This document shows, piece after piece, positions 1,171 through 31,984 of a stretch of 32,000 bases of DNA; position 1 is the first letter of the stretch; each line of letters opens with the position of its first letter. The notes beneath the pieces were generated by a model, which saw only the letters and a program-made list of their open reading frames with translations, did not search any database and had not been told where the DNA came from. Origin of the DNA: an uncultured Chloroflexia bacterium (lineage in GTDB: Bacteria > Chloroflexota > Anaerolineae > Anaerolineales > Anaerolineaceae); assembly GCA_963704755.1 (NCBI GenBank), contig OY969938.1, positions 1,920,001 to 1,952,000 on the forward strand, given 5' to 3'. Position numbers and translations under genes: made by a program.

Positions 1171-1201
1171 TGTGCCTGCTCAAGCCCTGATTAAGAAGTT
1201 A

Positions 1202-1254
1202 CCGGAATTAAGCTGTTTGCACTGGTTTCACCGATGCAAACAGCTTAGTTCCGG
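1202..1254. repeat. Long hairpin: 20-bp arms (one T/G position), 13-nt loop
   Basis: The left arm ccggaattaagctgtttgca (1202-1221) pairs with the right arm tgcaaacagcttagttccgg (1235-1254). The loop is ctggtttcaccga. It lies 32 nt after the GT stop codon and has no U-tract. Confidence 0.7.
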
Positions 1255-1447
1255 GGTTATTACTCGTTGGGCTGAGCATTTACGAATAAAACACTTAATT
1301 CGATCTGCTGGCCTCCCAGCCAATTCAAGAATCCCCCCAACCCCCTTGAAAAGGGGGCAAGAAACGGCGGGGTCTAGTAAAACAAGAGGTGCAGCAACCC
1401 GGCCAGGACAATCGCATCCTGCCAATTTAGTCCCAACAGAGAGATAA

Positions 1448-1492
1448 TTTTGAGTGTTATTGTAGCGCTACGCCCCACAATAACACTCAAAA
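1448..1492. repeat. Perfect 16-bp hairpin with 13-nt loop
   Basis: The arm ttttgagtgttattgt (1448-1463) is the exact reverse complement of acaataacactcaaaa (1477-1492). The loop is agcgctacgcccc. Confidence 0.7.
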
Positions 1493-2588: not shown

Positions 2589-2629
2589 AACTATCCGAAA
2601 ATCGGTAACTATTCAGGCTCCTGAAAAAT

Positions 2630-2692
2630 AAACCCTGAATTTGATGTGTTTGCGCGGGCTTCGCCCGCGCAAACACATCAAATTCAGGGTTT
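2630..2692. terminator. Perfect 30-bp palindrome (apex GGGC-TTC-GCCC) between convergent genes, a probable bidirectional terminator and repeat-family member
   Basis: aaaccctgaatttgatgtgtttgcgcgggc (2630-2659) is the exact reverse complement of 2663-2692. It lies between the stop codon of the + gene (2588) and the stop codon of the - gene (2773). Confidence 0.65.
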
Positions 2693-2772
2693 TCCCAGTC
2701 GGCTGAGTAGTTACAAAACTTCTATTATTGATACTTGGGGTAGTCCTCGGGGTTGAAAACCGAGCGACCGCT

Positions 2773-4794: not shown

Positions 4795-4822
4795 CGCAGC
4801 AACCTTTTTAGCAAATTGCTTT

Positions 4823-4867
4823 GGGTGCTTGTTTTGGGCGGCGAAACGCCGCCCAAAACAAGCACCC
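4823..4867. repeat. Perfect 21-bp palindrome (apex GGCG-AAA-CGCC) inside the operon, between the NuoF-like and ferredoxin genes
   Basis: gggtgcttgttttgggcggcg (4823-4843) is the exact reverse complement of 4847-4867. It lies in the 160-bp gap between 4794 and 4955. Confidence 0.75.
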
Positions 4868-4954
4868 TGAAATATCTTTTGGAATGGTTCTTATCTTACT
4901 TGGAAACTACTCAGGCAGGTTCAGTAGGGTGTTCCTTCTGCGCTGGCTGTGTAA

Positions 4955-6598
4955 TTACCTTACTTTCGAATAGACCGGGATCTCGACCGGAACCGGCTCG
5001 GTGTTGGCTCGAATTTTCTCCAGGTACTCCTCGCGGAAATAGCGCAGCGAGCTGAGGATCGGGTTGGGAGCCGCTTTCCCCAGGCCGCACAGGCTGGTCG
5101 AGGCCACCATTTCGCACAGGTATTCCAGCATCTCCAGGTCGGATTCGACCGCCTTGCCTTCGATAAATTTGTTCAACAAGTTGTAAATCTTCACATTTCC
5201 GATCCGGCAGGGGGTGCATTTCCCGCAGGATTCGTCCATGCTGAACTCCATGAAATACTTGGCCACGTTGAGGATGCTGGAAGTATCGTCGATGACGATG
5301 ATACCACCTGAACCCATGATCGAGCCCAAACGGTTCAAAGTTTCGTAATCCACCGGCGTATCCAGCAGCAATTCGGGGATGCAGCCGCCGGAAGGCCCGC
5401 CGGTCTGCACCGCTTTGAAGTCGTGCCCGTCCGGGACACCCCCGCCGATATCGTACACAATTTCACGCAGGGTGATGCCCATGGGTACCTCGATCAAGCC
5501 GGTGTTCTGGATCTTGCCGGTCAGGGCGAACACTTTTGTGCCCTTGCTCTTTTCGGTGCCGACCGAGGCAAACCAGGCTCCGCCATTGCGGATGATGTGC
5601 GGCACATTGGCATAGGTCTCGACGTTGTTGATCAGGGTCGGCCGGCCTTCCAACCCGCTGATCGAGGGGTAAGGCGGCCGCGAGCGCGGCGTGCCCCGGT
5701 CGCCCTCGATCGAATTGATCAGAGCCGTCTCTTCGCCGCAGACGAAGGCCCCCGCCCCCAGGCGGATGTCGATGTTGAACGAAAAGTCCGAGCCGGCGAT
5801 GTTCTCACCCAGCAGCCCGTTGCGTTCGGCCTGGCGGATGGCCACCTTGAGGCGTTTGACCGCCAGCGGGTACTCGGCGCGCACGTACACGTAGCCCTGC
5901 CGGGCCCCTACCGCATAGGCCGCGATGATCATGCCTTCCAGCACGGCGTGCGGGTCGCTTTCCAGGATCGAGCGGTCCATGAAAGCGCCCGGGTCGCCCT
6001 CGTCCGCGTTGCAGATCAGGTATTTCAAATCATTGGCCTGGTCGTGGACCAACTGCCATTTGGTGCCGGTGGGGAAACCGCTGCCACCGCGCCCGCGCAG
6101 CCCGCTGGACTTGATTTCATCTACAACCCCCTGCGGCGACATGGCCGTAATGGCTTTGACCTCACCCAGGTAGCCGCCCTGAGCGATGTAATCTTCGATC
6201 TTTTCCGGGTTGACTATGCCGGAATGTTTGAGGGTCACCTTGTGCTGGCGGGTGAAAAACGGTGTGGTGGTGTCGATGACCAGGCGTTTTACCGGCTGGG
6301 CATTGAGCGAATCGAGGATCTCCGGCACATCCTCGGGGGAGACGGTTTTGTAGAGGATGCCGTCTGGTTGAATCGAGACGATCGGCCCGGCCGCGCACAG
6401 CCCCATACAGCCCACCGGCTTGATGCCCACCACGTTCTCCAGGCCGCGCTGCTTGATCTCTTTTTCCAGGCTGGCGATAATCAGCGAACTGTTCGATGAA
6501 ACACAGCCTGTACCGGTGCACACGTGGATTACGTGCTGGTAGCGCGCCTGCATTTCGTGTTCCTTTTCAGCAATTTGGTTCAGCGTTGACTCATCCAT
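4955..6598 (-). CDS. NuoF/HoxF-like NAD(H)-binding flavoprotein (51-kDa family) with N-terminal thioredoxin-like 2Fe-2S domain
   Basis: N-terminal CTGTGC ... CMGLC. FMN site GLRGRGGSGFPTG. NADH site GAGAFVCGEETALI. N3 4Fe-4S motif SCGKCTPCR ... C. There is no C-terminal 2x[4Fe-4S] extension. The start overlaps the upstream gene by 8 nt. Confidence 0.9.
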   Translation of the reverse strand: MDESTLNQIAEKEHEMQARYQHVIHVCTGTGCVSSNSSLIIASLEKEIKQRGLENVVGIKPVGCMGLCAAGPIVSIQPDGILYKTVSPEDVPEILDSLNAQPVKRLVIDTTTPFFTRQHKVTLKHSGIVNPEKIEDYIAQGGYLGEVKAITAMSPQGVVDEIKSSGLRGRGGSGFPTGTKWQLVHDQANDLKYLICNADEGDPGAFMDRSILESDPHAVLEGMIIAAYAVGARQGYVYVRAEYPLAVKRLKVAIRQAERNGLLGENIAGSDFSFNIDIRLGAGAFVCGEETALINSIEGDRGTPRSRPPYPSISGLEGRPTLINNVETYANVPHIIRNGGAWFASVGTEKSKGTKVFALTGKIQNTGLIEVPMGITLREIVYDIGGGVPDGHDFKAVQTGGPSGGCIPELLLDTPVDYETLNRLGSIMGSGGIIVIDDTSSILNVAKYFMEFSMDESCGKCTPCRIGNVKIYNLLNKFIEGKAVESDLEMLEYLCEMVASTSLCGLGKAAPNPILSSLRYFREEYLEKIRANTEPVPVEIPVYSKVR

Positions 6599-7146: not shown

Positions 7147-7309
7147 AACCACAGAGCACACAGAGTTCACAGAGTAAAGAAAGAAAAGAAAAAATTTGCT
7201 GTTTGAAAGAACAATGGCTTAAAGTGGATCGGCCCGGTCTCCAGACCGAGGCCGCTCTTCTGCTCTGGTCAGAAAGACTAACCACGGAGGCACGGAGAAC
7301 ACGGAGAAG
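7147..7309. repeat. Composite dispersed element, copy A: triple heptad (CACAGAG x3), purine-rich spacer, 33-nt core, then triple heptad (CACGGAG x3)
   Basis: aaccacagagcacacagagttcacagag at 7147-7174. Core gatcggcccggtctccagaccgaggccgctctt at 7227-7259. aaccacggaggcacggagaacacggagaag at 7280-7309. The same core, and the CACGGAG triplet (one of its two flanking triplets), recur in the second copy at 23604-23753. Confidence 0.8.
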
Positions 7310-7382
7310 AATTTTTTGGGGAAGGAAATTGCACATGACAGCAAAATTTCCTACCATTTAATCTTTTCCATAAAAATCTTTC

Positions 7383-7409
7383 CTCCGTGTTCTCCGTGCC
7401 TCCGTGGTT
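7383..7409. repeat. Inverted copy of the CACGGAG triple heptad (27-bp perfect inverted repeat with 7280-7306)
   Basis: ctccgtgttctccgtgcctccgtggtt is the exact reverse complement of aaccacggaggcacggagaacacggag. The arms are separated by 76 nt. Confidence 0.85.
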
Positions 7410-7429
7410 GATTTCTCTTTGTTAATTTC

Positions 7430-8266: not shown

Positions 8267-8410
8267 GATTGCCTCCGGTAAATAGGTACGGTCTTAATAT
8301 ACTCAGCCCCAGGCGATAGCGCATCGCCTGGGGCTTTAATTATCGCTAACCAAATGGTTGAAAAAAAGAGGGCCGCTCTCAATAAAATGGTTGAGAATAA
8401 ATGTTTTAAA

Positions 8411-8461
8411 TTCGAGATGGGGTAGTTTTTGGGCTTCGCCCAAAAACTACCCCATCTCGAA
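8411..8461. repeat. Perfect 24-bp palindrome (apex GGGC-TTC-GCCC)
   Basis: ttcgagatggggtagtttttgggc (8411-8434) is the exact reverse complement of 8438-8461. It lies between the permease stop codon (8466) and the start of the CBS gene (8266). Confidence 0.75.
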
Positions 8462-8465
8462 ATTT

Positions 8466-11214: not shown

Positions 11215-11367
11215 TGCCGTCCTTTCGCTCGATTAGATCATTACCGACACTTCCGTTTCAGGCGAGCGGTATTCTCAAATTTGGATATTTTCTCGTTTGC
11301 ATCGAGAAACCTTGATATCTTTAAAAGACTGTAACTTCTCTGGCCCATATTGAGTAGTCCCTGAATT

Positions 11368-14651: not shown

Positions 14652-15137
14652 TTTCAGTGATCCGGTATTTCAGTGATTCAGTGTTTCAGTGATTCGGTAT
14701 TTCAGTGATTCAGTTTTTCAGTGATTCAGTTTTTCAGTGATTCAGTGTCTCGGTGAAGAAAAGTGTCAGGGAAGTGATACTGTGTTTCAGTGATTCAGTA
14801 TCTCGGTGAAGAAAAGTGTCAGGGAAGTGAGACAGTGATTAAGTGAAATAGTGAGGCAGTGAAACACCGCAACACTGGAACACCGAAGCACTGAAACACC
14901 GCAACACTGAAACACCGAAGCACTGGAACACCGAAGCACTGAAACACCGCAACACTGAAACACCGAAGCACTGGAACACCGAAGCACTGGAACACCGCAA
15001 CACCGCAACACTGAAACACCGCAACACTGGAACACCGAAACACTAAATCACCGAAGCACTGGAACACCGAAACACTGAATCACCGAAGTACTGAAACACC
15101 GCAACACCGAATCACTTCCCCTGACACTTAGTTCTTC
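14652..15137. repeat. Octamer minisatellite / foldback array
   Basis: The left part holds about 12 units of tttCAGTG/attCAGTG. A 46-nt direct repeat (14732-14777 and 14785-14830, 1 mismatch) carries the box gaagaaaagtgtcagggaagtga. About 36 octamers follow in an unbroken 8-nt phase (14831-15117), alternating nnnCACCG and nnnCACTG. The terminal inverted box tcacttcccctgacacttagttcttc (15112-15137) closes the array. Confidence 0.9.
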
Positions 15138-17775: not shown

Positions 17776-19947
17776 ATGATGATGGACGCAAAAATAAAAC
17801 GCGAAATTCCAAACCACTTCAGCCTGCCCCGGCGAATCAGCCGGTTGGGCGGGTTAGCCTATAACCTCTGGTGGGTCTGGAACCCCGAAGCACAGCAGCT
17901 CTTCCGCCAGATCGATATGCGTTTGTGGGATGATGTCGGCCACAACCCGGTTGCTTTTCTCAAGATGGTTGAGCGCAGCCGCCTGAACGCCGTCACCAAT
18001 GAGCATTACTACCTGGAGATGTACGACCGGGTAATGAAAAAGTTCGATGCCTATATGAGCGGCGAAGGCTCCTGGTTCGCCACCCAACACCCCGAACTGA
18101 GCGACATGCAGATCGCCTATTTCTCCTTCGAGTTCGGGCTGCACGAGTCACTGCCGGTGTATGCCGGCGGCCTGGGCATCCTGGCCGGCGATCACTTGAA
18201 AGAGGCCAGCGACATGGGCCTGCCCCTGGTGGGGTTGGGTTTCATCTACAACCAGGGCTACTTCACTCAACGCATCACCGAAGACGGCTGGCAGGAAACC
18301 CAGACGCACTACCTGGTACTGGAAGACTCGCCCGTCATCCCGCTGTTCGACCAGGACGGCAACCCGGCCACCATCTCGGTCGAGCTGACCGGCCGAAACG
18401 TACTGGCGCGCATCTGGGAGGTCAAGGTTGGGCGCATTTCCCTGTTCTTGCTGGATACCAACCTGGAATTCAACTCGGAAGTGGACCAGCAACTGACTGC
18501 CCGGCTGTACAGCAACGACCTGGATGTGCGCGTCTCGCAGGAGATCCTGCTCGGCATCGGCGGAGTGCGTGCGCTGCGCCGGCTGGGCTACGACCCGCAG
18601 GTCTGGCACATGAACGAAGGCCACTCGGCCTTCCTGGTAGTGGAGCGCGCCCTGGAACTGGTGCGCACCGGCAAGACTTTCGCGGAAGCCTCCGAGACGA
18701 TCCGCAAGAGCAACGTGTTCACCACCCACACCCCCGTACCGGCCGGCAACGACCAGTTCCCGCTTTGGCTGGTGGACAAGTATTTCGCCAATGTCTGGCC
18801 CCAACTCGGCCTGACCCGCGATCAGTTCGTTGACCTGGGCCGCCAGGCTACTCCCTGGGGCGAAAGCTTCTGTATGCCGGTGTTGGCCCTGCACCTTTCG
18901 GAACATGCCAACGCGGTCTCCGAGCTGCACGGGCGGGTATCCCGGCGGATGTGGAACTTCCTCTGGCCCGAACGCCCATCCGAAGACGTGCCGATCAGCC
19001 ATATTACCAACGGCGTCCACACCGGCACCTGGATCGCGCGCCGGCTGCGCCTGTTGTTCGATCGCTACCTAGGCGCCGACTGGATGAACCACCTGGACGA
19101 CCCGAATACCTGGGCCCTGGTCGAAAACATCCCCGACGGTGAATTATGGGCCGTCCGCCAGCACCTCAAACGCAAACTGACTTTATACATCAACACCCGG
19201 GCACGCATCGCCTGGCAGTCGGGCAGCATCAGCCCGGCCCAGGCATTAGCCTCGGGTGTTTTCCTCGAGCCGTATTCGCTGACCATTGGCTTCGCCCGCC
19301 GTTTCGCTACCTACAAACGCGGCAACCTGATCATGCGCGATTACGAACGCCTGATGCGCCTGATCACCAACGCCGACATGCCGGTGCAGATCATCTTCGC
19401 CGGCAAGGCCCATCCCGCCGACGAGCCGGGCAAACTGCTCATCCAGCAGGTCTATCGGGCCGTCAAGGATTCCAACGCCGGTGGGCGCCTGGCCTTCCTG
19501 GAAGACTACGATTTGAACATGGCTCGCTATCTGGTGCAGGGTGTGGACGTCTGGATGAATAATCCACGCCGGCCCAACGAAGCCTCGGGAACTTCCGGTA
19601 TGAAAGCCGCCCTGAACGGCGTGCTCAACCTGTCGGTTATGGACGGCTGGTGGCGCGAAGGCTTCAACGGCCAGAACGGCTGGGCCATTGGTGAAGACAC
19701 CGACCCGGTGGACCCCAACCAGCAGGACGAAATGGATGCGCGCAGCCTGTACGAGCACCTGGAAAATGAGATCGTGCCACTGTATTACAACAATCGCAGC
19801 GCCGACAAGCTGCCGACCGCCTGGATCGCGCGGGTCAAGGAAGCCATTCGCACCCTTGGGCCTCAGTTCAGCACCCGGCGTATGGTCGGCGAGTACTTTA
19901 CCGAAATGTACCTGCCCTGCGTCCAAACCGAGAGCGAAAAACAATAA
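17776..19947 (+). CDS. glgP: Alpha-glucan (glycogen/maltodextrin) phosphorylase, GT35, short alpha-glucan family type
   Basis: YFSFEFGLHESLPVYAGGLGILAGDHLKEASDMGLPLVGLGFIY and the pyridoxal-phosphate Lys motif EASGTSGMKAALNG. Three consecutive ATG codons lie at 17776-17784, so the exact start is uncertain. Confidence 0.9.
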   Translation: MMMDAKIKREIPNHFSLPRRISRLGGLAYNLWWVWNPEAQQLFRQIDMRLWDDVGHNPVAFLKMVERSRLNAVTNEHYYLEMYDRVMKKFDAYMSGEGSWFATQHPELSDMQIAYFSFEFGLHESLPVYAGGLGILAGDHLKEASDMGLPLVGLGFIYNQGYFTQRITEDGWQETQTHYLVLEDSPVIPLFDQDGNPATISVELTGRNVLARIWEVKVGRISLFLLDTNLEFNSEVDQQLTARLYSNDLDVRVSQEILLGIGGVRALRRLGYDPQVWHMNEGHSAFLVVERALELVRTGKTFAEASETIRKSNVFTTHTPVPAGNDQFPLWLVDKYFANVWPQLGLTRDQFVDLGRQATPWGESFCMPVLALHLSEHANAVSELHGRVSRRMWNFLWPERPSEDVPISHITNGVHTGTWIARRLRLLFDRYLGADWMNHLDDPNTWALVENIPDGELWAVRQHLKRKLTLYINTRARIAWQSGSISPAQALASGVFLEPYSLTIGFARRFATYKRGNLIMRDYERLMRLITNADMPVQIIFAGKAHPADEPGKLLIQQVYRAVKDSNAGGRLAFLEDYDLNMARYLVQGVDVWMNNPRRPNEASGTSGMKAALNGVLNLSVMDGWWREGFNGQNGWAIGEDTDPVDPNQQDEMDARSLYEHLENEIVPLYYNNRSADKLPTAWIARVKEAIRTLGPQFSTRRMVGEYFTEMYLPCVQTESEKQ

Positions 19948-20506: not shown

Positions 20507-20550
20507 ATGGTGATCTCCGCGGGCAACTCCCGCGGAGATCACCATTTTTT
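20507..20550 (+). terminator. Rho-independent terminator (17-bp perfect stem, 5-nt loop, T-tract)
   Basis: The arm atggtgatctccgcggg (20507-20523), the loop caact, and the arm cccgcggagatcaccat (20529-20545), followed by ttttt. It abuts the stop codon of the convergent nfeD-like gene. Confidence 0.85.
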
Positions 20551-21874
20551 ATACCTTTCTCACTTTCAACCGCAGTCCCTCTACCGCCACCACCTCGACC
20601 CGCGCACCTTCGGGGATCGAATCGAGCGGGTCGATGGTTTCGGCTGTCCACAGCTCGCCGGCAAGCTGGACGCTGCCCTGCGGTGCCAGGGAACTGCTGA
20701 CGGTTCCCTGCTGGCCGATCAGGGTAGCCCGGCCCATGACGGCCGGTGCATGCAGGGCTCGCCAGGCGAAGGAGATGATCACCATGAAGCTGGCGGCCAG
20801 AAAAGCCGCCATGCCCAGCACCAGCGGCACCGAAACGGCCGGGAAGCCGGGTGTGCGGGCGGAATTAAACAGGGTCAGCGCTCCGAAAACGAACGAAACG
20901 ATACCGGTGATGGTCAAGGCGCCGCTGGTATGCGTCTTAACCTCCAGGATAAAGAGTACAAATGCCAGCACGATGAAAATCAAGCCGAACAGGTTGATCG
21001 GCAGGATTCCGAAGCTGTACACCACCAGGGCCAGGCAGACCACCCCAATGAACCCGGCCACCCAGCCGCCGGGACTGGAGAGCTCGATCAACAGCGCCTG
21101 GATGCCGATCGAGAGCAGGATGAAGACGATATTGGGGTCGGTCAGGAGTTGTAAGGCATTCTCGACCAGGGTATGGGGCACTTCCTGGACCACGGCGTAC
21201 TGGGTGTGCAGGACCACCGGCTGGCCCTGGAGCTGCAAAGTGTAGCCGTCCAGTTGGCGCAGCAGGTCATTAACGTCGCTGGCGATAAAATCGGTCAGCC
21301 CAATTTTCAAGGCTTCATCCGAAGAAACCGCGGTCGCGTTCTGGATGGTATCCTCGGCCAGGGAGATCGCGGCCGGGGGGCGGTTCGCCGCCAGTGTGCG
21401 CACCGTGGCGCGCATGGCCTCTTTGGTTTTGGCTTCCTCAGTGGTATCGATGTTTTCCCCTTGCGAGCCGACCGGGCTGGCCGCCCCAATGATCGTCTCG
21501 GGCGCCATGGCGTTGGCCTGGCCTGCCAGGGTGATGACCGTGCCGGCCGATGCCGCCATGGCTCCGCGCGGGGTGACGTAAACCACCACCGGCACCGTGC
21601 TGGCGCGCAGGTCCTGGATGATGGTGCTCATCAAGGTAATCGATCCGCCTGGGGTATTCAATTCCAGAATGACCAGCTCGGCCCCATCCTGCTGGGCCAC
21701 GGTCAGGCCGCGTTCGATATAGCTGACCATAGCCGGCGTCAGCGGCCCGCTGGCGTCCATCAGCTTGACCAGCGGTGAGCCGCCCGTGGATTGGGCCGCG
21801 GCCGGCCGCAAGAGCAAACTGCCGGCCAGCAGGTTGAGAAAAACCAGGATGGCCACCCGGTAAAGGCGTTTCAT
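20549..21874 (-). CDS. NfeD-family membrane-bound serine protease (ClpP-class) with C-terminal NfeD OB-fold
   Basis: Signal/TM MKRLYRVAILVFLNLLAGSLLL, ClpP-like ILELNTPGGSI, central TM bundle and C-terminal GELWTAE...VEVVAVEGLRLKVRKV. I prefer the ATG at 21874 (GGAGG Shine-Dalgarno) over the track start at 22111. Confidence 0.82.
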   Translation of the reverse strand: MKRLYRVAILVFLNLLAGSLLLRPAAAQSTGGSPLVKLMDASGPLTPAMVSYIERGLTVAQQDGAELVILELNTPGGSITLMSTIIQDLRASTVPVVVYVTPRGAMAASAGTVITLAGQANAMAPETIIGAASPVGSQGENIDTTEEAKTKEAMRATVRTLAANRPPAAISLAEDTIQNATAVSSDEALKIGLTDFIASDVNDLLRQLDGYTLQLQGQPVVLHTQYAVVQEVPHTLVENALQLLTDPNIVFILLSIGIQALLIELSSPGGWVAGFIGVVCLALVVYSFGILPINLFGLIFIVLAFVLFILEVKTHTSGALTITGIVSFVFGALTLFNSARTPGFPAVSVPLVLGMAAFLAASFMVIISFAWRALHAPAVMGRATLIGQQGTVSSSLAPQGSVQLAGELWTAETIDPLDSIPEGARVEVVAVEGLRLKVRKV

Positions 21875-21932
21875 CGGTGTACCTCCGTAAATGCATCCAT
21901 ATTTAGGTACTGCTCCGGCCAGTTCAAAAGGT

Positions 21933-21991
21933 GCAGGTGTTTTTATTATTTTTTGTGTGCTTCGCACACAAAAAATAATAAAAACACCTGC
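21933..21991. repeat. Perfect 28-bp palindrome (apex GTGC-TTC-GCAC) in a divergent promoter region
   Basis: gcaggtgtttttattattttttgtgtgc (21933-21960) is the exact reverse complement of 21964-21991. It lies between the nfeD-like start (21874, -) and the GH1 start (22218, +). Confidence 0.8.
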
Positions 21992-22217
21992 TTTCTCCAT
22001 GACAGTTGAGTAGTTACCATATTTATATTTATTATAGCGGGTTCGCCAGGGGTTTAGCTCTTCCCGCCCAATCGGTTTCCGATCGGGGCAAGCGGAGAAG
22101 GGTCGAAGCACCGGCTATCCGGAATCTTTTGGGTTGGCAAACCCGCAAATACCAAACAGGATTAGATTAAAATAGAATCTATCCCGCCACAAAAACGTCA
22201 ACCCAAGGAGCAGCAGC

Positions 22218-23594
22218 ATGGCCTACCCACAATTTCCGCCCGGTTTTCTCTTCGGCACGGCTTCTTCGGCTTTCCAGATCGAGGGCAGCCCGGCCGCCGA
22301 TGGAAAAGGCCCATCCATCTGGGATACTTTCAGCCATAAGCCCGGCAAGATCAGCACAGGCGAAGACGCCGACCTGGCCTGCGATGCCTACCGCCACCCC
22401 GAGCGCGACCTGGACCAGATGGCCGCCTTGGGGCTGAACGCCTGCCGCTTTTCGGTCAGTTGGACGCGGGTGCTGCCCCAGGGCCGCGGTCAGGTCAACC
22501 GGAAAGGCCTGGATTATTACGACCGCCTGGTCGATCTGCTTCTGGAACGCAACCTGGCGCCTTTCCTGACCCTGTTCCACTGGGATACGCCCCAGGCCCT
22601 GCAAGACCTGTGCGGCGGGTTTGCCGGGCGCGACTGCGCGGCTTACTTTGCCGATTACGCCGAAGTCGTCGCCAAAACGTTAGGCGACCGGGTCAAGAAC
22701 TGGATCACCCTCAACGAGCCCTGGGAGCATTCCGTCCTGGGCCATCTGCTCGGCAACCACGCTCCCGGCCGGCACAACCCCTGGATTTACCTGCGGGTGG
22801 CCCACCACCTGCTGCTCGGCCACGGCCTGGCCCTGGAGCGGATCCATGCGGCCGCGCCTGGCGCACAGGCCGGCATTACCTTGAGCATCACCCCCATCCA
22901 CCCGGCCACGTCCAATCCGCGGGATGTGCGCGCCGCTGTAGTTGGCAACCAGTTCTTCAACGATTTCTTCCTGGACGGGGTTCTCAAGGGCAGGTATCCC
23001 CAACCGCTGTGGAACCGCATGGCCCTGATCCATCCCCACATCGGGCCCGAGGACATGCAGATCATCTCTCGCCCGGTCGATTTCCTGGGGATCAACTATT
23101 ACAGCCGCGAGTTCGCTCGAGCGGTCTGGTATATGCCCTTCTTTGGTTTCTGGGTGGACCAGGTCGAGACCGGCGGCGCAGAGACCGTGGTCGACGGGCG
23201 CGCCTACACGGCCAGCAGCCGCGAGATATACCCGCCCGAGTTCTACAACACGCTCATGCGCATCAAGAACGAGTACGGCAACCCCTACACTTACATCACC
23301 GAAAACGGCGCTGCCTTTCGGGATGTGCTCGTCGATGGGCAGGTGCACGACTCGCCACGGGTCGCCTTTCTGGAAGGGTACATGAATGAAGCCGCCCGCG
23401 CCATCCGCGATGGGGCCAACATCCACGGCTATTTCATCTGGTCGCTGACCGACAACTTCGAGTGGGACCTGGGCTATTCCATGCGCTTCGGGCTGGTGTA
23501 TGTCGATTTTGCTACCCAGCAGCGCACGGTCAAAGACAGCGGGTATTGGTTGCGGGATGTCATTCGCAGCCAGCCACCGGCGCCGAATGTCTAG
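22218..23594 (+). CDS. GH1 beta-glucosidase
   Basis: FLFGTASSAFQIEG, the acid/base motif TLNEPW and the nucleophile motif YITENGAAF. AAGGAG Shine-Dalgarno site. Confidence 0.93.
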   Translation: MAYPQFPPGFLFGTASSAFQIEGSPAADGKGPSIWDTFSHKPGKISTGEDADLACDAYRHPERDLDQMAALGLNACRFSVSWTRVLPQGRGQVNRKGLDYYDRLVDLLLERNLAPFLTLFHWDTPQALQDLCGGFAGRDCAAYFADYAEVVAKTLGDRVKNWITLNEPWEHSVLGHLLGNHAPGRHNPWIYLRVAHHLLLGHGLALERIHAAAPGAQAGITLSITPIHPATSNPRDVRAAVVGNQFFNDFFLDGVLKGRYPQPLWNRMALIHPHIGPEDMQIISRPVDFLGINYYSREFARAVWYMPFFGFWVDQVETGGAETVVDGRAYTASSREIYPPEFYNTLMRIKNEYGNPYTYITENGAAFRDVLVDGQVHDSPRVAFLEGYMNEAARAIRDGANIHGYFIWSLTDNFEWDLGYSMRFGLVYVDFATQQRTVKDSGYWLRDVIRSQPPAPNV

Positions 23595-23603
23595 AGAAAG
23601 AAT

Positions 23604-23753
23604 AACCACGGAGGCACGGAGCGCACGGAGAAGAAGGAAGAGTTTAAGAAGAGGAAAGAAGTTTTAAGGCAGATCGGCCCGGTCTCCAGACCGAGGCCGC
23701 TCTTATTGGCTGATCAGATATTGCACCGCAGAGACGCAGAGGGCGCTGAGAAG
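23604..23753. repeat. Composite dispersed element, copy B: CACGGAG x3, purine-rich spacer, identical 33-nt core, then CGCAGAG-type x3
   Basis: aaccacggaggcacggagcgcacggagaag at 23604-23633. The core gatcggcccggtctccagaccgaggccgctctt at 23672-23704 is identical to 7227-7259. caccgcagagacgcagagggcgctgagaag at 23724-23753. A degenerate third core lies at 23914-23956. Confidence 0.8.
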
Positions 23754-23972
23754 ATTTTTAAAAAGAGCGCCGTCGTAGGGTGCGTTTGAGGGCTGACTTC
23801 CCAAGCAGGGTTGGACGACCAGAACACTGGCCAACCCTGACGTGCCCGGAACGCACCATTATGGCGCCGCCTTGTAAGAGAAACTGTTATTAAAAGAAAG
23901 ATAGCCCAAAGCAGATCGGCCCGGTCTCTCCCTCCTTTCCGTTGGCCGAGGCCGCTGAGAAATGTAGAGTAC

Positions 23973-24140
23973 GGTGGGTGTAGGGCTCATTTATAACGCT
24001 GGCGACCTATACAACGGCGAGATCTACGAAACCTTGCCCGTAACCCACCGTTCTGTCCGGATGGTGGGTTACGGGCAATATCCCGGGATGGGACAACTAA
24101 TCTTTATTCGCCAGCATTGTTTATGAGCCCTGCACCCACC
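23973..24140. mobile_element. MITE-like foldback: about 33-bp imperfect terminal inverted repeats (28/33) flanking a perfect 16-bp hairpin
   Basis: ggtgggtgtagggctcatttataacgctggcga (23973-24005) pairs with tcgccagcattgtttatgagccctgcacccacc (24108-24140). The internal hairpin is ttgcccgtaacccacc (24034-24049) with ggtgggttacgggcaa (24063-24078) and a 13-nt loop. No transposase is present. Confidence 0.4.
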
Positions 24141-24355
24141 CTACAGCTGCCTTTTAAAGCCCGTAGGTTGGGTTGCGGGCGTATTCGTGGGACTTGGCTA
24201 TAAACAGGATGTTTGGTCATTTAAACCTTGCCCACAGCCTATAGGCCTTTTCAAAAAACTGCTAAAATAATGACGTGGGGGTTTATGCAACAGGGGGTGA
24301 TTCTCACCCAATGTTCTGCCTTCGCTCCCACCAAATGGCATCGCCATACGGCGAA

Positions 24356-24383
24356 TCAGGTTCGAGTCCTGACTCATACCCCA
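24356..24383 (+). other. tRNA 3'-end-like fragment (T-arm + 7-nt acceptor strand + discriminator + CCA), with no 5' half
   Basis: tcagg-TTCGAGT-cctga matches the GGTTCGAnTCC T-loop consensus with a 5-bp stem. It is followed by ctcatac-c-cca. I could not build a D-arm, an anticodon arm or a complementary 5' acceptor strand upstream. Confidence 0.35.
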
Positions 24384-24479
24384 AAGGACTTCTTATACAG
24401 GGAAAGCGCCAAGCAGGCTAAAACCTCCGCAGGATTCCTGGAAGTCCTTTGGCGGTATGAACAAATCAAAGGGGCGAAA

Positions 24480-25244
24480 ATGAATCCTTACGTCATCATC
24501 TTGCTCATTGTCGTAGTCGTTGGAATAATCCTCTACCTTGGACGCCAGCGGGTGGTTATTTTCGATTATGAAACCGGGGTGCTGTTTGTGAACGGTAAAT
24601 TCAAGCAACTGCTCGAGCCCGGTTTGCACACTACCTTTTTTCAAAGAAATCGAAAAGTTATAAAAGTGGATATGCGCTCACAGGCGCTGTCCATTCAGGG
24701 CCAGGAAATTATTTCTGCAGACAATGTTGGGATTCGCATCAGCCTGGGAATAATCTTTAGAGTCTCAGACGCTTACAAAGCGACGACGGCCTCGGTCAAG
24801 TACCTGGATGAACTATATTTACTCGTTCAAACAGAGCTTCGAGACATTGTAGGGGGTACTCCGATTGATTTGCTTTTGCAAAAGCGCAAAGAAATCAACG
24901 AGGAATTGTTCGAAGCGGTCCGCACCCCGGTAGCTGAATTAGGCCTGAAAGTTAAATCAATTGCGATAAAGGACATCACCTTTCCCGGGGAATTGCGGGG
25001 TATGTTTGCCCAGGTAGTGAACGCAAAAAACGAAGGATTGGCCGCCTTAGAACGAGCCCGTGGCGAAAGCGCAGCCTTACGCAATTTGGCCAATACCGCG
25101 AAATTGATGGAAAATAACCCGTCCTTGTACCAGCTCCGCTTGCTGCAGGCGCTGGAAAAAGGGCGTGGGAACACGGTCATTCTCTCCCCTAACCCGGATC
25201 TGGCCGGGATGATCACAGCAGACAAAAAATCAGGCCAGGGATAA
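24480..25244 (+). CDS. SPFH/Band-7 (stomatin/slipin-like) membrane protein
   Basis: An N-terminal TM (YVIILLIVVVVGIILYL) is followed by an SPFH core (ISADNVGIRISLGIIFRVSD ... LGLKVKSIAIKDITFP) and a C-terminal coiled region. I prefer the ATG at 24480 over the track start at 24228. Codon choice is visibly AT-richer than in neighbouring genes. Confidence 0.85.
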   Translation: MNPYVIILLIVVVVGIILYLGRQRVVIFDYETGVLFVNGKFKQLLEPGLHTTFFQRNRKVIKVDMRSQALSIQGQEIISADNVGIRISLGIIFRVSDAYKATTASVKYLDELYLLVQTELRDIVGGTPIDLLLQKRKEINEELFEAVRTPVAELGLKVKSIAIKDITFPGELRGMFAQVVNAKNEGLAALERARGESAALRNLANTAKLMENNPSLYQLRLLQALEKGRGNTVILSPNPDLAGMITADKKSGQG

Positions 25245-25251
25245 GAATTTT

Positions 25252-26877
25252 TTATTGAGACGATATGGTCTCGGTTTTCTGGAAGATGCCGGTGGCGCCG
25301 TTGGGGTGGGCGGGCGCCTCATCGGTGATCTGTAAATCACCATTGCCATCGTAGGCCCGTACCGAAAAGGTATGTTCGCCTTGCGAGGCGGGCCAGTCGA
25401 AGCGCCACTGGACCCAGGTCAGCGGGCTGTAAGGTGGGTCGCGTAGTTCGGCCGGCTGCCAGGGCCCGTCATCGACCTGGACCTCCACCCGGCTGATGCC
25501 GCGCGCTCCGGCGTAGGCGATTCCGCCGACCGGAATTGCGCCGGTAGCAGGATCCGGGCTGTCTTTATCCACCACGTCGATCACCGAAGTGGTGGGCGGA
25601 ATGGCCGTATCGCTCCACCCGCGATCCACCCAGTACCCGCGGATTTTTTGATCGACGGCCTGCATGTGGGTGATCCATTTGGGTTGTTTCATCCCAAAAT
25701 GGTTGGGGATATAAATGCGCAGGGGAAAGCCGTGCGGCTGCGGAAGCGGCTCACCGTTCATGGCATAGACCAATAAAGTGCGCTCGTCCATGGCCTCATC
25801 CAGCGGCACACTCTCGTAAAAGCCGTCCTGGGCCTCGATGTGGATTTCCACAACGCCATCCTGCAGGCCGGCCTGGGCCAGCACATCCTTGAACATAGCC
25901 CCGGTCCACAAACTGGTGCTGGTTAAATCACCGCCTAATGGGTTCGAAATGCATTCCAGGGTAATCGCCTGGGTATAAGCCGGAAATTGGCGGATGTCAT
26001 CCAGGGTAAGTTCCAGGGGATGATCGACCAACCCGTCGATCTTCAACCGCCAGGAATTCTCGTCGATGACGGGGGGCATCGCATCGATGTCGATACGGTA
26101 GAACTGGCTGTTCGAGGTGATTTCAGCGCGGGTACCCGGCGCCGGTTGGATACGCGCTTCCAGCGTCGCCTGCGGTGGGGTATCAGCCTTCCCGGATGTA
26201 GGGTTACCCTGGCCAGCACTGCCCGGATTGCCCGCGGCCGTTTGGCTGTTTTGCTCGGTGAGCAAACGTACACCGGCAGCCGCGACCAGCACGGTAAATG
26301 AACCTACCCCGACCAGCGAGAGGAACCTGCGCCGTTCGCTTGAAGTCGTTTCCGGCACCGATTCGACCGATGTGAATTCGATCAGTTTCCCCAATACCCA
26401 GCCCCAGCCGGCGAAGACCAGCAGCTCGAAAATGAGGCTGATGACCGGACCGGCTTCGGGGAAACCCAGCCAGAACATAATTGCCACGACCGGGACCAGG
26501 ACGATCAGGCCGCCAATGACTCCCATGCGGGGTAAACGGGCCGGGCGCTTGCGCCCGAGCAGGGTCAAGATGATCCCCAATACGATCCCGGCGGCAATGA
26601 AAGACAGGATCGCCATGCTTTGTTCGATCAGTTTGGCCACCTGCGAGGTCGGCCCCAGGTTGAGCCCGCGGATGGTCTTGACCATGGAATCGATGACGAG
26701 GGTTATGACGTTCCCGGGCAGCAAGCGTACCATTGCGTCGAAGACGACAAAGGCCGGGCGCGGGAGACCCGCCAGAGTGCCGGCGAGGTAATGGAAAAGT
26801 ACCAACAGGGCCGTAGTCAATCCGCCCCACAGCCCACCCAATAACCATCGCGCTCGCCTTCCTACTTTTGTAGCCAT
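25252..26877 (-). CDS. Membrane-anchored molybdopterin-dependent oxidoreductase (sulfite-oxidase family fold plus Ig-like C-terminal domain)
   Basis: About 5-6 N-terminal TM helices are followed by a Pro/Gly-rich linker. The Oxidored_molyb-like core includes TLECISNPLGG (candidate Mo-ligand Cys), FPLRIYIPNHFGMKQPKWI and a C-terminal dimerisation-like beta domain. Confidence 0.75.
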   Translation of the reverse strand: MATKVGRRARWLLGGLWGGLTTALLVLFHYLAGTLAGLPRPAFVVFDAMVRLLPGNVITLVIDSMVKTIRGLNLGPTSQVAKLIEQSMAILSFIAAGIVLGIILTLLGRKRPARLPRMGVIGGLIVLVPVVAIMFWLGFPEAGPVISLIFELLVFAGWGWVLGKLIEFTSVESVPETTSSERRRFLSLVGVGSFTVLVAAAGVRLLTEQNSQTAAGNPGSAGQGNPTSGKADTPPQATLEARIQPAPGTRAEITSNSQFYRIDIDAMPPVIDENSWRLKIDGLVDHPLELTLDDIRQFPAYTQAITLECISNPLGGDLTSTSLWTGAMFKDVLAQAGLQDGVVEIHIEAQDGFYESVPLDEAMDERTLLVYAMNGEPLPQPHGFPLRIYIPNHFGMKQPKWITHMQAVDQKIRGYWVDRGWSDTAIPPTTSVIDVVDKDSPDPATGAIPVGGIAYAGARGISRVEVQVDDGPWQPAELRDPPYSPLTWVQWRFDWPASQGEHTFSVRAYDGNGDLQITDEAPAHPNGATGIFQKTETISSQ

Positions 26878-27051
26878 CCTATACCTCTTTATTTGTAACT
26901 GCTCAATCCCACGGCCTGGAACTCAAATGCGGAGGCTAATTAGCACGCGCTTGAGGTGTTAGCTTTATTTATCATAGCGCTTTTCTATAAAAAATCTAAA
27001 AACCGTAATAATTATGTAATTAGTTGACATTGGCCGGGTATTTTAACGTTT

Positions 27052-27120
27052 AAAAGGGGGGTGTTTTTATTGTTTTTCGCGTGCTTCGCACGCGAAAAAC
27101 AATAAAAACACCCCCCTTTT
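27052..27120. repeat. Perfect 33-bp palindrome (apex GTGC-TTC-GCAC) with A4/T4 flanks
   Basis: aaaaggggggtgtttttattgtttttcgcgtgc (27052-27084) is the exact reverse complement of 27088-27120. It lies 11 nt downstream of the stop codon of the 27131-27427 ORF and upstream of the Mo-enzyme gene. Confidence 0.8.
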
Positions 27121-27130
27121 CCGAACTGGC

Positions 27131-27427
27131 CTATTGAAACCACTGCATCTGCGGCCACATCTCGGCCCAGGCCCTGCGTGCCTGCCGGCAGACGTAGATC
27201 ACATTGTGCCAGGTACTTTCCTCATTCTTGACTCCGTACTGGTTCGAAACAACGCCCTTTGCCTGACATTCGTTGAAGTATTGGCCGAGATAGATAGATT
27301 CCATGCCCACCACGATAACCGTTCCCGGTTCGCTGCCGCCATATCCGCGCGTCCACATACTGTTGCCGCCGCTGATGACCGGGGGCAAATCGTAACTGCT
27401 GCCATACAATTCCAATGCGCCGCACAA
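27131..27427 (-). pseudogene. Probable relic C-terminus of an ArnT/PMT-like (GT39/GT83-type) membrane glycosyltransferase
   Basis: The 98-aa ORF opens right after an in-frame TAG and uses a TTG start with no Shine-Dalgarno site. The upstream sequence is AT-rich and non-coding. The peptide (YDLPPVISGGNSMWTRGYGG..VIVVG...YFNECQ...NVIYVCRQARRAWAEMWPQMQWFQ) resembles, from memory, the conserved soluble C-terminal tail of GT39-family proteins. Confidence 0.4.
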
Positions 27428-27643
27428 AAACTCCCCCTAAAACCCGAAAAACCTATAAAATTAACCTAGTTTTTACTTAAATCGGTAAACATTTATGTTT
27501 GCCATCCGAAGCTAATATTAACCTTTTCGTTGTTTATTGGATCCAGGATAAGGGCCTGGCTTGCCTGATTGGAAAGCTCCTCAACAGGTTTTCTGCGGAT
27601 CCACTTTAAGGGGCAGCGATTATCCTTACAGGAGCGTTTTATC

Positions 27644-30706: not shown

Positions 30707-31927
30707 ATGGCCCCTAGAATTCTCACAATCGATGACGAGCCCATGTACCACACCATGATCGCACGGGCGCTGGAACCCCTGAACTGTCAGATCAGCACTG
30801 CCGAAGATGGCACCCAGGGTCTGGCCATGGCAAGGAACCTCAAGCCGGACGTGATCATCACCGATGTCGTCATGCCGGATATCACCGGTTACGAGGTGAC
30901 CCGCCTGCTGCGCCGCGACCCCGAGTTCGCTCACGTGCCCATCCTGGTGCTCACCGCCCAAACCGGCTTGCAGGACAAGCTCAAGGCTTTCGAAGTCGGC
31001 GCGGACGATCACCTGACCAAACCTTTCGAGCCGGCCGAACTGGCCGCGCGGGTCACTGCCCTTATCCGCCGGGCCGAGGTCAATAAAGCCGCCGAGCCCT
31101 CCGCCGTGACAAAAGAAAAAGCCCGCCTGATCGCCCTGCACAGCTTGCGCGGAGGCACCGGCTGCTCCAGCATGGCGGTCAACCTGTCGGTGGCGCTGGC
31201 CAGTTTGTGGAAGAGCCCCACCATCCTGCTGGACCTGACCATGGTCGCCGGCCAGGTAGCCCTGATGCTCAACGCCACCCTGAAGCGCACCTGGGCGGAC
31301 CTGGCCCGCTTCAAGCAAAGCGATCTGGACATGCAGGTACTTTCCTCAATCGTTTTCCAGCACGAAAGCGGGTTGTCATTCATCGCCGCGCCGACCTTCC
31401 CAAGCGAAGCCGAGACTATCGATACCGAGACCCTGGCGACGGCGGTGCGTATTTTGCAGCAGCGCTACGATTACATCGTGGCCGATCTGCCGCACGACTT
31501 CAGCGAGATCAGCCTGCAGACTCTCGATCTGGCCGACATTGTCCTGCTGGTCGCCTCGCCCGACCTGGCCTCGCTGCGCGCCGTGGTTGCAGCCATGGAT
31601 ACCTATAAAAAATTAGGCTATCCCACCCAGCAGATCAAACTGATGCTGAACGCGACCTTCCCTAAATCCGGGCTGTCGAAGGACAAGATCGAATCCGCGG
31701 TCAAGATGCCCATCACCGTCACTGTGCCCTACACCCAGGAACTGTTCGTGGAAGCAATCAACCTGGGCATGCCGCTGGTTTTCGATAAACCGGAGGAGGC
31801 CGTCTCGGGTCTGCTGGAAGATTTTGCGTTTTATTTGAGCAAGGAAAGCCACAAAAAATCCAGGCCGCAAAACCCCAGTGACGCCTGGACGCGGGTCTAT
31901 AAACGCTATAACAGCCGCAAAAAATAA
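30707..31927 (+). CDS. Response-regulator receiver fused to a CpaE/TadZ-like (MinD/ParA-fold) domain
   Basis: REC has ILTIDDEPMYH..VITDVVMPDITGYEV..LTKPF. The MinD/ParA-like part has a deviant P-loop, SLRGGTGCSSMAVNLS, in place of KGGxGK[ST], then DYIVADLPHD (Walker B-like). AAGGAG Shine-Dalgarno site. Confidence 0.78.
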   Translation: MAPRILTIDDEPMYHTMIARALEPLNCQISTAEDGTQGLAMARNLKPDVIITDVVMPDITGYEVTRLLRRDPEFAHVPILVLTAQTGLQDKLKAFEVGADDHLTKPFEPAELAARVTALIRRAEVNKAAEPSAVTKEKARLIALHSLRGGTGCSSMAVNLSVALASLWKSPTILLDLTMVAGQVALMLNATLKRTWADLARFKQSDLDMQVLSSIVFQHESGLSFIAAPTFPSEAETIDTETLATAVRILQQRYDYIVADLPHDFSEISLQTLDLADIVLLVASPDLASLRAVVAAMDTYKKLGYPTQQIKLMLNATFPKSGLSKDKIESAVKMPITVTVPYTQELFVEAINLGMPLVFDKPEEAVSGLLEDFAFYLSKESHKKSRPQNPSDAWTRVYKRYNSRKK

Positions 31928-31931
31928 AAAA

Positions 31932-31984
31932 ACGAATTTGATGTGGTTGCCGGGGCAAAGCCCCGGCAACCACATCAAATTCGT
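31932..31984. terminator. Perfect 25-bp palindrome (apex GGGC-AAA-GCCC), a probable terminator and repeat-family member
   Basis: acgaatttgatgtggttgccggggc (31932-31956) is the exact reverse complement of 31960-31984. It begins 5 nt after the stop codon at 31927 and shares GAATTTGATGTG with the palindrome at 2630. Confidence 0.7.

Follow-up and report, generated by a model that had tools for sequence, protein, structure and literature searches.

Mirrored variation in the palindromic cores of a miniature inverted-repeat transposable element family from an Anaerolineaceae lineage

The 32-kb stretch analysed here (contig OY969938.1, positions 1,920,001 to 1,952,000; hereafter the window) is an ordinary chromosomal segment of about 58% G+C with housekeeping and signalling genes. 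The named relatives of its alpha-glucan phosphorylase (17776-19947) belong to Bellilinea (80%), Longilinea and Thermanaerothrix (74-75%), and the host is therefore a member of the Anaerolineaceae (Chloroflexota). No tRNA was found in the window. A preliminary description of this DNA had drawn attention to four long palindromes, here termed A to D, and to the likeness of A to B and of C to D. They are the following:

21933-21960 / 21964-21991, no strand: palindrome A, perfect 28-bp arms, loop TTC (GCGAAGC on the other strand)
27052-27084 / 27088-27120, no strand: palindrome B, perfect 33-bp arms, loop TTC
2630-2659 / 2663-2692, no strand: palindrome C, perfect 30-bp arms, loop TTC
31932-31956 / 31960-31984, no strand: palindrome D, perfect 25-bp arms, loop AAA

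Re-reading the sequence confirmed the coordinates, the 100% self-complementarity of the arms around a 3-nt centre in each palindrome and the mirrored differences between them. The arms of A and B have GGTGTTTTTATT in common, after which 3 of 13 positions differ, each by a transition; those of C and D have GAATTTGATGTG in common, followed by 11 positions with 3 differences, each of them a transversion. Each of these differences is mirrored in the opposite arm. A permutation check on the shared 12-mers, already proposed in the preliminary description, excluded a chance origin: when the arms of eight long hairpins of the window were shuffled with their composition preserved, two pairs with a shared stretch of at least 12 nt appeared in 0 of 5000 trials, and the in-register identities of A/B (22/25) and C/D (20/25) were attained in 0 of 20000 shuffles. 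The likeness within both pairs is homology and does not stem from AT-rich or GT-rich composition.

The family was sampled by a metagenome scan for the outer arms of the C/D type, with more than 120 contigs among the matches listed, and alignment of the flanks in these contigs revealed the palindrome as the centre of a longer unit of about 111 bp. The consensus, 111 bp long and with no coding capacity, reads in short form GTAACTGCTCAGGCTCGTGTGAAAAAGACCC-GAATTTGAGGTGTTTGCGGGTGC-TTC-...-CTGAGTAGTTAC. Its left part, GTAACTGCTCAGGCyCrTGTGAAAAAGaCCC, leads into the left arm GAATTTGAGGTGTTTGCGGGTGC and the 3-nt loop, and the right arm GCACCCGCAAACACCTCAAATTC is followed by GGcAACTTTCnnCnCATGGCTGAGyAGTTAC. 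Terminal inverted repeats (TIRs) of 12-14 bp, GTAACTRCTCAG, are present at both ends of the consensus and in most copies; two sub-terminal segments of 17 nt are conserved, asymmetric and not mutually complementary; the central palindrome has 25-33 perfect bp and a 3-nt loop. We recovered 61 pairs of element ends lying 105-120 bp apart, and 53 of the 61 distinct copies with both ends recognised measure 110-112 bp. Of 62 distinct copies, 46 are flanked by direct repeats of 8 bp that match perfectly (27 copies) or differ at a single position (19 copies), as compared to 1.6% in a control with shuffled pairings, and the insertion targets are AT-rich. Identical elements were found in unlike flanks (L022, L023, L102, L103 and L121), and a short copy of the window (26895-26962) is missing from an 88%-related contig, L009.

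When tested for the hallmarks of a transposable element of the miniature inverted-repeat type (MITE), the family thus displayed small non-coding size, TIRs, a duplication of fixed length and many unrelated sites with presence and absence of the element between relatives. It is a MITE family spread within one Anaerolineaceae lineage (Chloroflexota), the four palindromes are almost certainly the central stem-loops of copies of this non-coding, non-autonomous transposable element, and A/B and C/D are two of its subfamilies. The preliminary description, which had recommended a search for target-site duplications and conserved flanks, was right to regard the pairs as homologous members of a dispersed family. 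Its notion of bare hairpins created de novo did not hold, as the hairpins are the cores of MITEs with defined ends and duplications. A derivation of A/B from C/D through a mirrored 12-nt insertion was also considered and dropped, the aligned stems being alike in length with about half of their positions changed.

A family profile built from 78 copies and used with nhmmer identified 172 elements in 650 kb of metagenome loci. In the window it matched C, D and a diverged copy at 1174-1283, and A remained below threshold because its palindrome differs from that of the profile. Regions of 22 kb from relatives with an 82%-identical phosphorylase, which keep synteny over two genes only, contained no element copies, and a scan of the genome collection with the A/B arm pair GGTGTTTTTATT..AATAAAAACACC returned eight unrelated inverted repeats from other phyla and not the window's own genome. 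The window holds at least seven copies or derivatives of the MITE, listed here with the target-site duplications of A:

21906..22017, plus strand: copy A, 112 bp, left end GGTACTGCTCCGGCC, right end TTGAGTAGTTAC, aligned to the family architecture
21898..21905 and 22018..22025, no strand: target-site duplications of A, CATATTTA on both sides, identical
27013..27141, minus strand: decayed element around B, extent approximate, boundaries and orientation tentative
2605..2714, plus strand: copy C, 110 bp, ends GTAACTATTCAGGC / GCTGAGTAGTTAC, nhmmer E = 2e-21
palindrome 31932..31984, no strand: copy D, nhmmer E = 1.6e-9, right end beyond the window
1174..1283, minus strand: diverged copy, imperfect hairpin at 1202-1254 (22/25), nhmmer E = 2e-5, downstream of a glycosyltransferase gene (7-1170)
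26895..26962, plus strand: 68-bp derivative without the left arm and apex of the palindrome, 8-bp duplication CTTTATTT at 26887-26894 and 26963-26970
4903..4958, plus strand: 56-bp derivative whose ends are family-like and which lacks the central palindrome, flanks CTTACTTG / CTTACTTT

The ends of B are poorly conserved; its right flank on the minus strand and the left flank of A both hold AGGCCAGTTC..AAAAGG, a signature also read as GGCCAGTTC..AAAAGG. The target duplication of C has decayed to 4/8 mismatches. Among the metagenome loci, L018, L039, L043, L050, L059 and L085 carry a subfamily of 130-135 bp in which an extra small hairpin, CCCCCACACTTCGGGGG, is nested in the right sub-terminal segment; in L059 this hairpin is tandemly duplicated.

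The mirroring seen in the window extends to the family. For the 25-bp central stem we analyzed 122 distinct full-length copies: 71 (58%) have no stem mismatch, 19 have one, 14 have two and 18 have three or more, and the 71 copies with perfect stems comprise 44 distinct arm sequences. Mean arm identity is 0.97 within an element versus 0.71 between elements, so that the closer likeness of arms within an element anticipated by the preliminary description holds statistically; for the inner 13 bp, which were not constrained by the search pattern, the corresponding values are 0.95 and 0.65. In an alignment of 91 copies, standard pairs occupy 97.6% of the cells and double-sided changes occur at 21 of the 23 stem pairs. 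Double-sided cells number 169; shuffling gave 27.2 +/- 4.3, with 169 attained in 0 of 500 shuffles, and sliding of the partner column gave 10-42. Within the element, sequence variation is greatest in the palindrome, which is nevertheless mostly perfectly paired.

The kinds of change observed suggest that arm-to-arm templating is probably the main source of this mirroring. In the same alignment, wobble cells number 20 as compared to the 169 double changes, and many of the swaps, being transversions, could not have passed through a wobble pair (GC to CG 17, UA to AU 9). Length changes are mirrored too, since perfect stems with arms one base above the consensus occur in three distinct variants, and in L073 the former loop TTC is now part of the stem, paired as TTC...GAA around a new loop. 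With respect to the asymmetric flanks, loops are found in both orientations (TTC 27 / GAA 19, GGA 6 / TCC 6, CAA 5 / TTG 2, CTG 5 / CAG 2, TGC 4 / GCA 2); the split is 12/9 for copies interior to contigs of at least 5 kb and is present in all assembly groups, old and new. A single young subfamily of near-identical copies has both, TGC in L022, L023 and L102 and GCA in L103 and L121, and the orientation agrees between the independent assemblies L009 and L010 and between L048 and L095. Mirrored lengths, the loop-to-stem event, the scarcity of wobbles and the two loop orientations argue for arm copying over independent compensation. Template-switch mutations are described as yielding perfect stems, compensation at several bases, insertions in one half of a stem, conversion of loop to stem and inverted loops (PMC8794818), and a footprint of this type (mirrored multi-base and indel changes, loop inversion, loop-to-stem) is present here, with the loop orientation taken from short-read assemblies.

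Stems have also outlasted the duplications around them. If both decayed equally, 0.8 of 61 stems would be expected to be perfect; 37 are, and so are 10 of the 16 whose duplications have two or more mismatches. In B, C and D of the window, the stems (33, 30 and 25 bp, respectively) are perfect although the ends or duplications have decayed. Deletion derivatives have kept one arm or the ends alone and are still flanked by duplications; they speak for formation of the hairpin in vivo, and the palindrome must therefore misbehave during replication. At the apex, 71 of 96 triloops are GNA/TNC versus 12 expected, with all four bases represented at N, and GCGNAGC, an exceptionally stable DNA mini-hairpin motif (PMC13037366), occurs on one strand in 58 of 122 copies.

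Taken together, a transposase supplied in trans would act on the ends of the MITE and move it. The long perfect palindrome, single-stranded during replication, would then fold back upon itself, and the nascent strand would be templated by the opposite arm through a template switch or quasipalindrome correction. One such event could carry substitutions and indels from arm to arm, draw loop bases into the stem or invert the loop. A structural constraint would be superimposed, keeping the apex as a GNA triloop closed by C:G (the GCGNAGC mini-hairpin), and slippage at the hairpin would remove part or all of the palindrome. The proposal in the preliminary description that one arm is copied from the other therefore stands as the better-supported reading, but the mechanism is already known as template-switch or quasipalindrome correction (PMC8794818). 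In addition, selection for hairpin stability at the DNA or RNA level is surely a further filter.

Selection could also be the sole cause, an explanation that we regard as unlikely although it accounts for several features of the family. The hairpins would then function in RNA as two-way intrinsic terminators or 3' stabilisers, with compensatory substitutions fixed one arm at a time. B, C, D and the copy at 1174-1283 are indeed located at gene 3' ends: C lies between convergent genes for an ADP-ribosylglycohydrolase (1623-2588, plus) and a SpoIIE-like protein (2773-3933, minus), B just downstream of a 98-aa open reading frame (ORF; 27131-27427, minus) and upstream of a Mo-oxidoreductase gene (25252-26877, minus), and the left flank of D overlaps the stop codon of gene 30707-31927. 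A- or T-tracts flank B (AAAA...TTTT), C (AAA...TTTT) and D. In a simple terminator scan D passed on the minus strand, where it is terminator-like, and A and B were not called; C fell beyond the range of the scan, its T-tracts being read from the sequence itself. The covariation is strong and the predicted RNA folds are very stable (hairpins: -49 to -75 kcal/mol; full elements: -52 to -75 kcal/mol, z = -10 to -16; A: -51.7 kcal/mol, z = -9.9; C: -74.9 kcal/mol, z = -16). Compensatory base-pair changes have moreover been reported in MITE-like repeats such as bcr1 (PMC3184786).

Stepwise compensation fits the details of the changes less well. Wobble intermediates are rare and many swaps are transversions to which no wobble path leads; G.T versus A.C mismatches, whose strand bias would be a sign of selection at the RNA level, show no significant bias (30 vs 20, p = 0.2); mirrored one-base insertions, the loop-to-stem event and the two loop orientations would not be expected. 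Typical intrinsic terminators have stems far shorter than 25-33 perfect bp, and the ordinary terminator of the window (20507-20545) consists of 17 bp followed by TTTTT. Finally, A lies between the divergent starts of an NfeD-like gene (20549-21874, minus; start 21874) and a gene of glycoside hydrolase family GH1 (22218-23594, plus; start 22218), as assigned from Pfam and third-position G+C (GC3). It occupies a promoter region because it is an insertion, with family ends and a perfect 8-bp duplication. In RNA, the hairpins would be strong barriers on either strand and at gene ends would probably serve as two-way blocks to transcription or exonucleases, and it is plausible that such a role as terminators or 3' stabilisers is secondary to their origin as insertions.

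It is to be noted that the right end of A (TTGAGT) and the flanking TATTAT (22006-22035) resemble a sigma-70 -35/-10 pair with an 18-nt spacer directed towards GH1. By this consensus match alone, the segment is a possible insertion-created hybrid promoter for that gene. The stop codons of gene 30707-31927 and of the ORF 27131-27427 fall within or at the edge of the flanks of D (31905-31927) and B (27131-27141), and the insertions may have reshaped the 3' ends of both reading frames. We also considered each hairpin as a small-RNA gene with an AATAAT -10 box, a GTAAC start and a hairpin terminator. This candidate was dropped, given that GTAACTRCTCAG is an inverted transposon end; the variable distance to the -10-like box and the flanking duplications also counter it.

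A stronger version of arm-to-arm templating, which we hold to be quite improbable, places fold-back copying at every transposition, with the second arm synthesised from the first, or assumes frequent flipping in situ. Either would explain why young copies have both loop orientations and why the palindrome is at once the fastest-changing and the most perfect part of the element. If true, transposition-coupled hairpin-templated synthesis would be a process not described for bacterial MITEs.

A distinctly unlikely explanation is that the transposase needs a perfect hairpin, so that compensated master copies alone multiply; mirrored differences would mark subfamilies and inserted copies would simply decay. 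Subfamilies with common arm variants (GCGCTTAC, GCGTGTGC and GCGGCCG types) do exist, young copies are identical at different sites and 42% of copies are imperfect. However, stem mismatches per pair do not rise with decay of the duplication (0.055 at no more than one mismatch versus 0.048 at two or more), 10 of 16 old copies are perfect, and B, C and D have retained perfect stems despite decayed ends or duplications. Palindrome-less derivatives still carry duplications, the derivative at 26895-26962 is missing at the corresponding site of L009, and a subfamily with an imperfect apex has multiplied. The origin of compensated masters would, in any event, still need a route.

The involvement of an HUH/Y1 transposase (RAYT or TnpA of IS200/IS605) acting on REP/REPIN-type palindromes, for which the preliminary description had suggested a search, is highly improbable. 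The elements are intergenic, palindromic and high-copy, and one terminal repeat contains GTAG (TGAGTAGTTAC); this GTAG, however, lies about 15 nt from the stem and not at the foot of the palindrome, and the other end variant has GCAG. REPs and the elements of HUH/Y1 enzymes (RAYT, IS200/IS605) are not known to have target-site duplications or TIRs, and REPs depend on such an enzyme. The presence of both in this family therefore points to a transposase acting at the ends and argues against HUH/Y1. No Y1/HUH or transposase domain was detected by Pfam among the 33 ORFs of the window that were scanned. As for a chance likeness of low-complexity AT/GT-rich arms or an artefact of assembly, G+T makes up 70% of the arms and palindromes can confuse assemblers (as in L041), but this negligible possibility is refuted as regards the existence and homology of the elements by the permutations above and by the recurrence of the same element in two independent ENA assemblies (L009 and L010) and in JGI contigs, the latter making up the more than 120 among the matches listed.

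Several observations weigh against arm-to-arm templating as the main source of the mirroring. Uncompensated mismatches are present in 51 of 122 copies (42%), so that homogenisation is neither fast nor universal. The arms are perfectly identical in 58% of copies and not in all, and the mismatched remainder is, in a weak form, what the preliminary description had named as contrary evidence. Our counts are of copies and not of events, and the covariation is inflated by subfamilies descended from master copies. Most copies were found with a pattern demanding that both outer 12-mers be intact, which biases stem perfection upward; the inner 13 bp still show only 0.083 mismatches per pair versus 0.160 in the duplications. 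Loop orientations were taken from metagenomes assembled from short reads, and an assembly may run through a perfect palindrome in either direction. One end of contig L041 is a clear fold-back artefact, and the same flank occurs with opposite loops in L017/L071 and L042/L044 only, where one copy of each pair lies at the end of a contig or close to it; part of the evidence for loop flipping could be due to assembly. Members of the A/B subfamily were found in this window alone, and the family-level figures given here are those of the C/D type. Selection for pairing is possibly the main filter. Last, the window and the 650 kb of metagenome loci yielded no autonomous element, three of eight wide-set end pairs being inspected.

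Exchanges between copies may also have occurred at these loci. L009 and L010 are syntenic with the window (neighbouring protein 88% identical) and have, at about the place of B, a perfect C/D-type hairpin, GAATTTGAGGTGTTTGCGAGGGC-AAA. Following GTAATAATT, the window (27013-27490) contains B and the 98-aa ORF, and L009 (2470-2790, reverse strand) contains a C/D-type element and no ORF; the outer flanks align well and the segment itself does not. Two explanations are possible, namely insertions that hit one site independently, or recombination between copies that replaced the segment. L088 and L107 have one flank and half of the element in common and differ in the other half and flank, with the join at the central palindrome; either the copies have truly recombined or the repeat has given rise to a chimeric assembly. 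In addition, element ends lie only 25-31 bp apart with nothing between them at 11331-11361 of the window, at 3251-3276 of L117 and at 605-629 of L059 (e.g. GTAACTGCCCAGGGTTGAGCAGTTAC), and these close-set pairs look like footprints of deletions of the whole hairpin interior.

Three further long hairpins of the window were not assigned to the family:

8408..8464, no strand: same-style long hairpin, 26/27, with GGGC-TTC-GCCC as apex, adjoining the stop of an ABC-2 permease gene, no recognisable MITE ends
4820..4870, no strand: unclassified long hairpin with a perfect stem of 21 bp and an AAA loop, downstream of a NuoF-like gene
1448..1492, no strand: unclassified long hairpin, 19/21, with GCGTAGC as minus-strand apex and an arm identical to B at 14/21 positions in register

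Two larger inverted structures were also noticed. The intergenic region of about 460 bp at 14655-15115, between TMEM175-like and response-regulator genes, is a large imperfect palindrome of tandem repeats, whose left side consists of short units (TTTCAGTGATTCAGTG...) that recur on its right side as the reverse complement (CACTGAAACACCGMAA...). At 7271-7418, between NuoE-like and CBS-domain genes, 53-nt inverted repeats with 81% complementarity surround a 42-nt AT-rich spacer and contain three ACGGAG(R)-type units each (CCACGGAGGCACGGAGAACACGGAGAAG); a similar CACGGAG motif is found beside an element in L126. In Rfam, no family reached its gathering score in the window, where sub-threshold matches were of the generic long-hairpin kind alone (miRNA precursors, bglG-cis-reg). 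The bglG-cis-reg model aligned over its full length with element C (2606-2729, minus) at 39.8 bits for a gathering score of 80, probably a generic long-hairpin similarity.

The closest known systems are hairpin-forming bacterial MITEs such as Correia, ERIC, bcr1, RUP and SPRITE. Like them, the present element is non-coding, about 100-150 bp long, high-copy and intergenic, has TIRs and duplications, and folds as a whole into a stable stem-loop; for SPRITE the hairpin is reported to be terminator-like (PMC10969869). Unlike these families it has no sequence similarity to described MITEs (no Rfam family above threshold, and no match when a plasmid collection was searched with the MITE consensus), and we found no paper on MITEs in Anaerolineae. 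What distinguishes the Anaerolineaceae MITE is the 8-bp duplication, the perfect 25-33-bp GNA-triloop palindrome that is its most variable part, and the asymmetric sub-terminal segments.

The IS66 family may be considered as a parent: GTAAGCG ends and 8-bp direct repeats on insertion are reported for it (PMC11946415, citing Ross et al. 2021), and the MITE ends likewise begin with GTAA next to 8-bp repeats. The ends here read GTAACTG/GTAACTA in place of GTAAGCG, however, so that GTAA alone is shared. The window and the 650 kb of metagenome loci yielded no transposase, of IS66 type or any other, whose ends matched. Three of the eight end pairs spaced 0.6-3.5 kb from each other were inspected for an autonomous partner; they proved to be adjacent MITEs or to span ordinary genes, and no transposase-like ORF was seen. 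IS66 parentage is therefore kept as a lead only.

Template-switch or quasipalindrome correction predicts perfect stems, several mirrored changes, mirrored insertions, loop-to-stem conversion and loop inversion (PMC8794818), all encountered here. The literature deals mainly with rRNA, microRNA and reporter genes, whereas here the process would act repeatedly on hundreds of copies of one mobile element. REP/REPIN elements with RAYT are likewise short, intergenic, hairpin-forming and high-copy, and they differ from this MITE in that the latter has duplications and TIRs and no HUH/Y1 gene nearby. With intrinsic terminators the MITE has in common a GC-rich apex, a 3-nt loop, a gene-end position for most copies and T-tracts after some. 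Its stems, in contrast, are two to four times longer, perfect and symmetric on both strands, it forms a dispersed repeat family whose copies carry duplications, and divergent promoters surround one of them.

The underlying phenomena are all known and no new mechanism is established; the value of the family lies in offering a clean, high-copy test system and not a new principle. The palindromes become an annotated mobile-element family, which is useful for Anaerolineae genomes and metagenome bins, and if the 32 kb are typical of the 4.87-Mb genome, the latter would contain several hundred copies or more. Contigs break or fold back at these MITEs, which makes them relevant to assembly, and some insertions have occurred in promoter regions and at gene ends. 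Hundreds of palindrome copies amount to a natural replicate experiment on the upkeep of long perfect hairpins, one that could be used to gauge the balance of template-switch correction, loop inversion, deletion and selection, a question already raised for RNA stems (PMC8794818).

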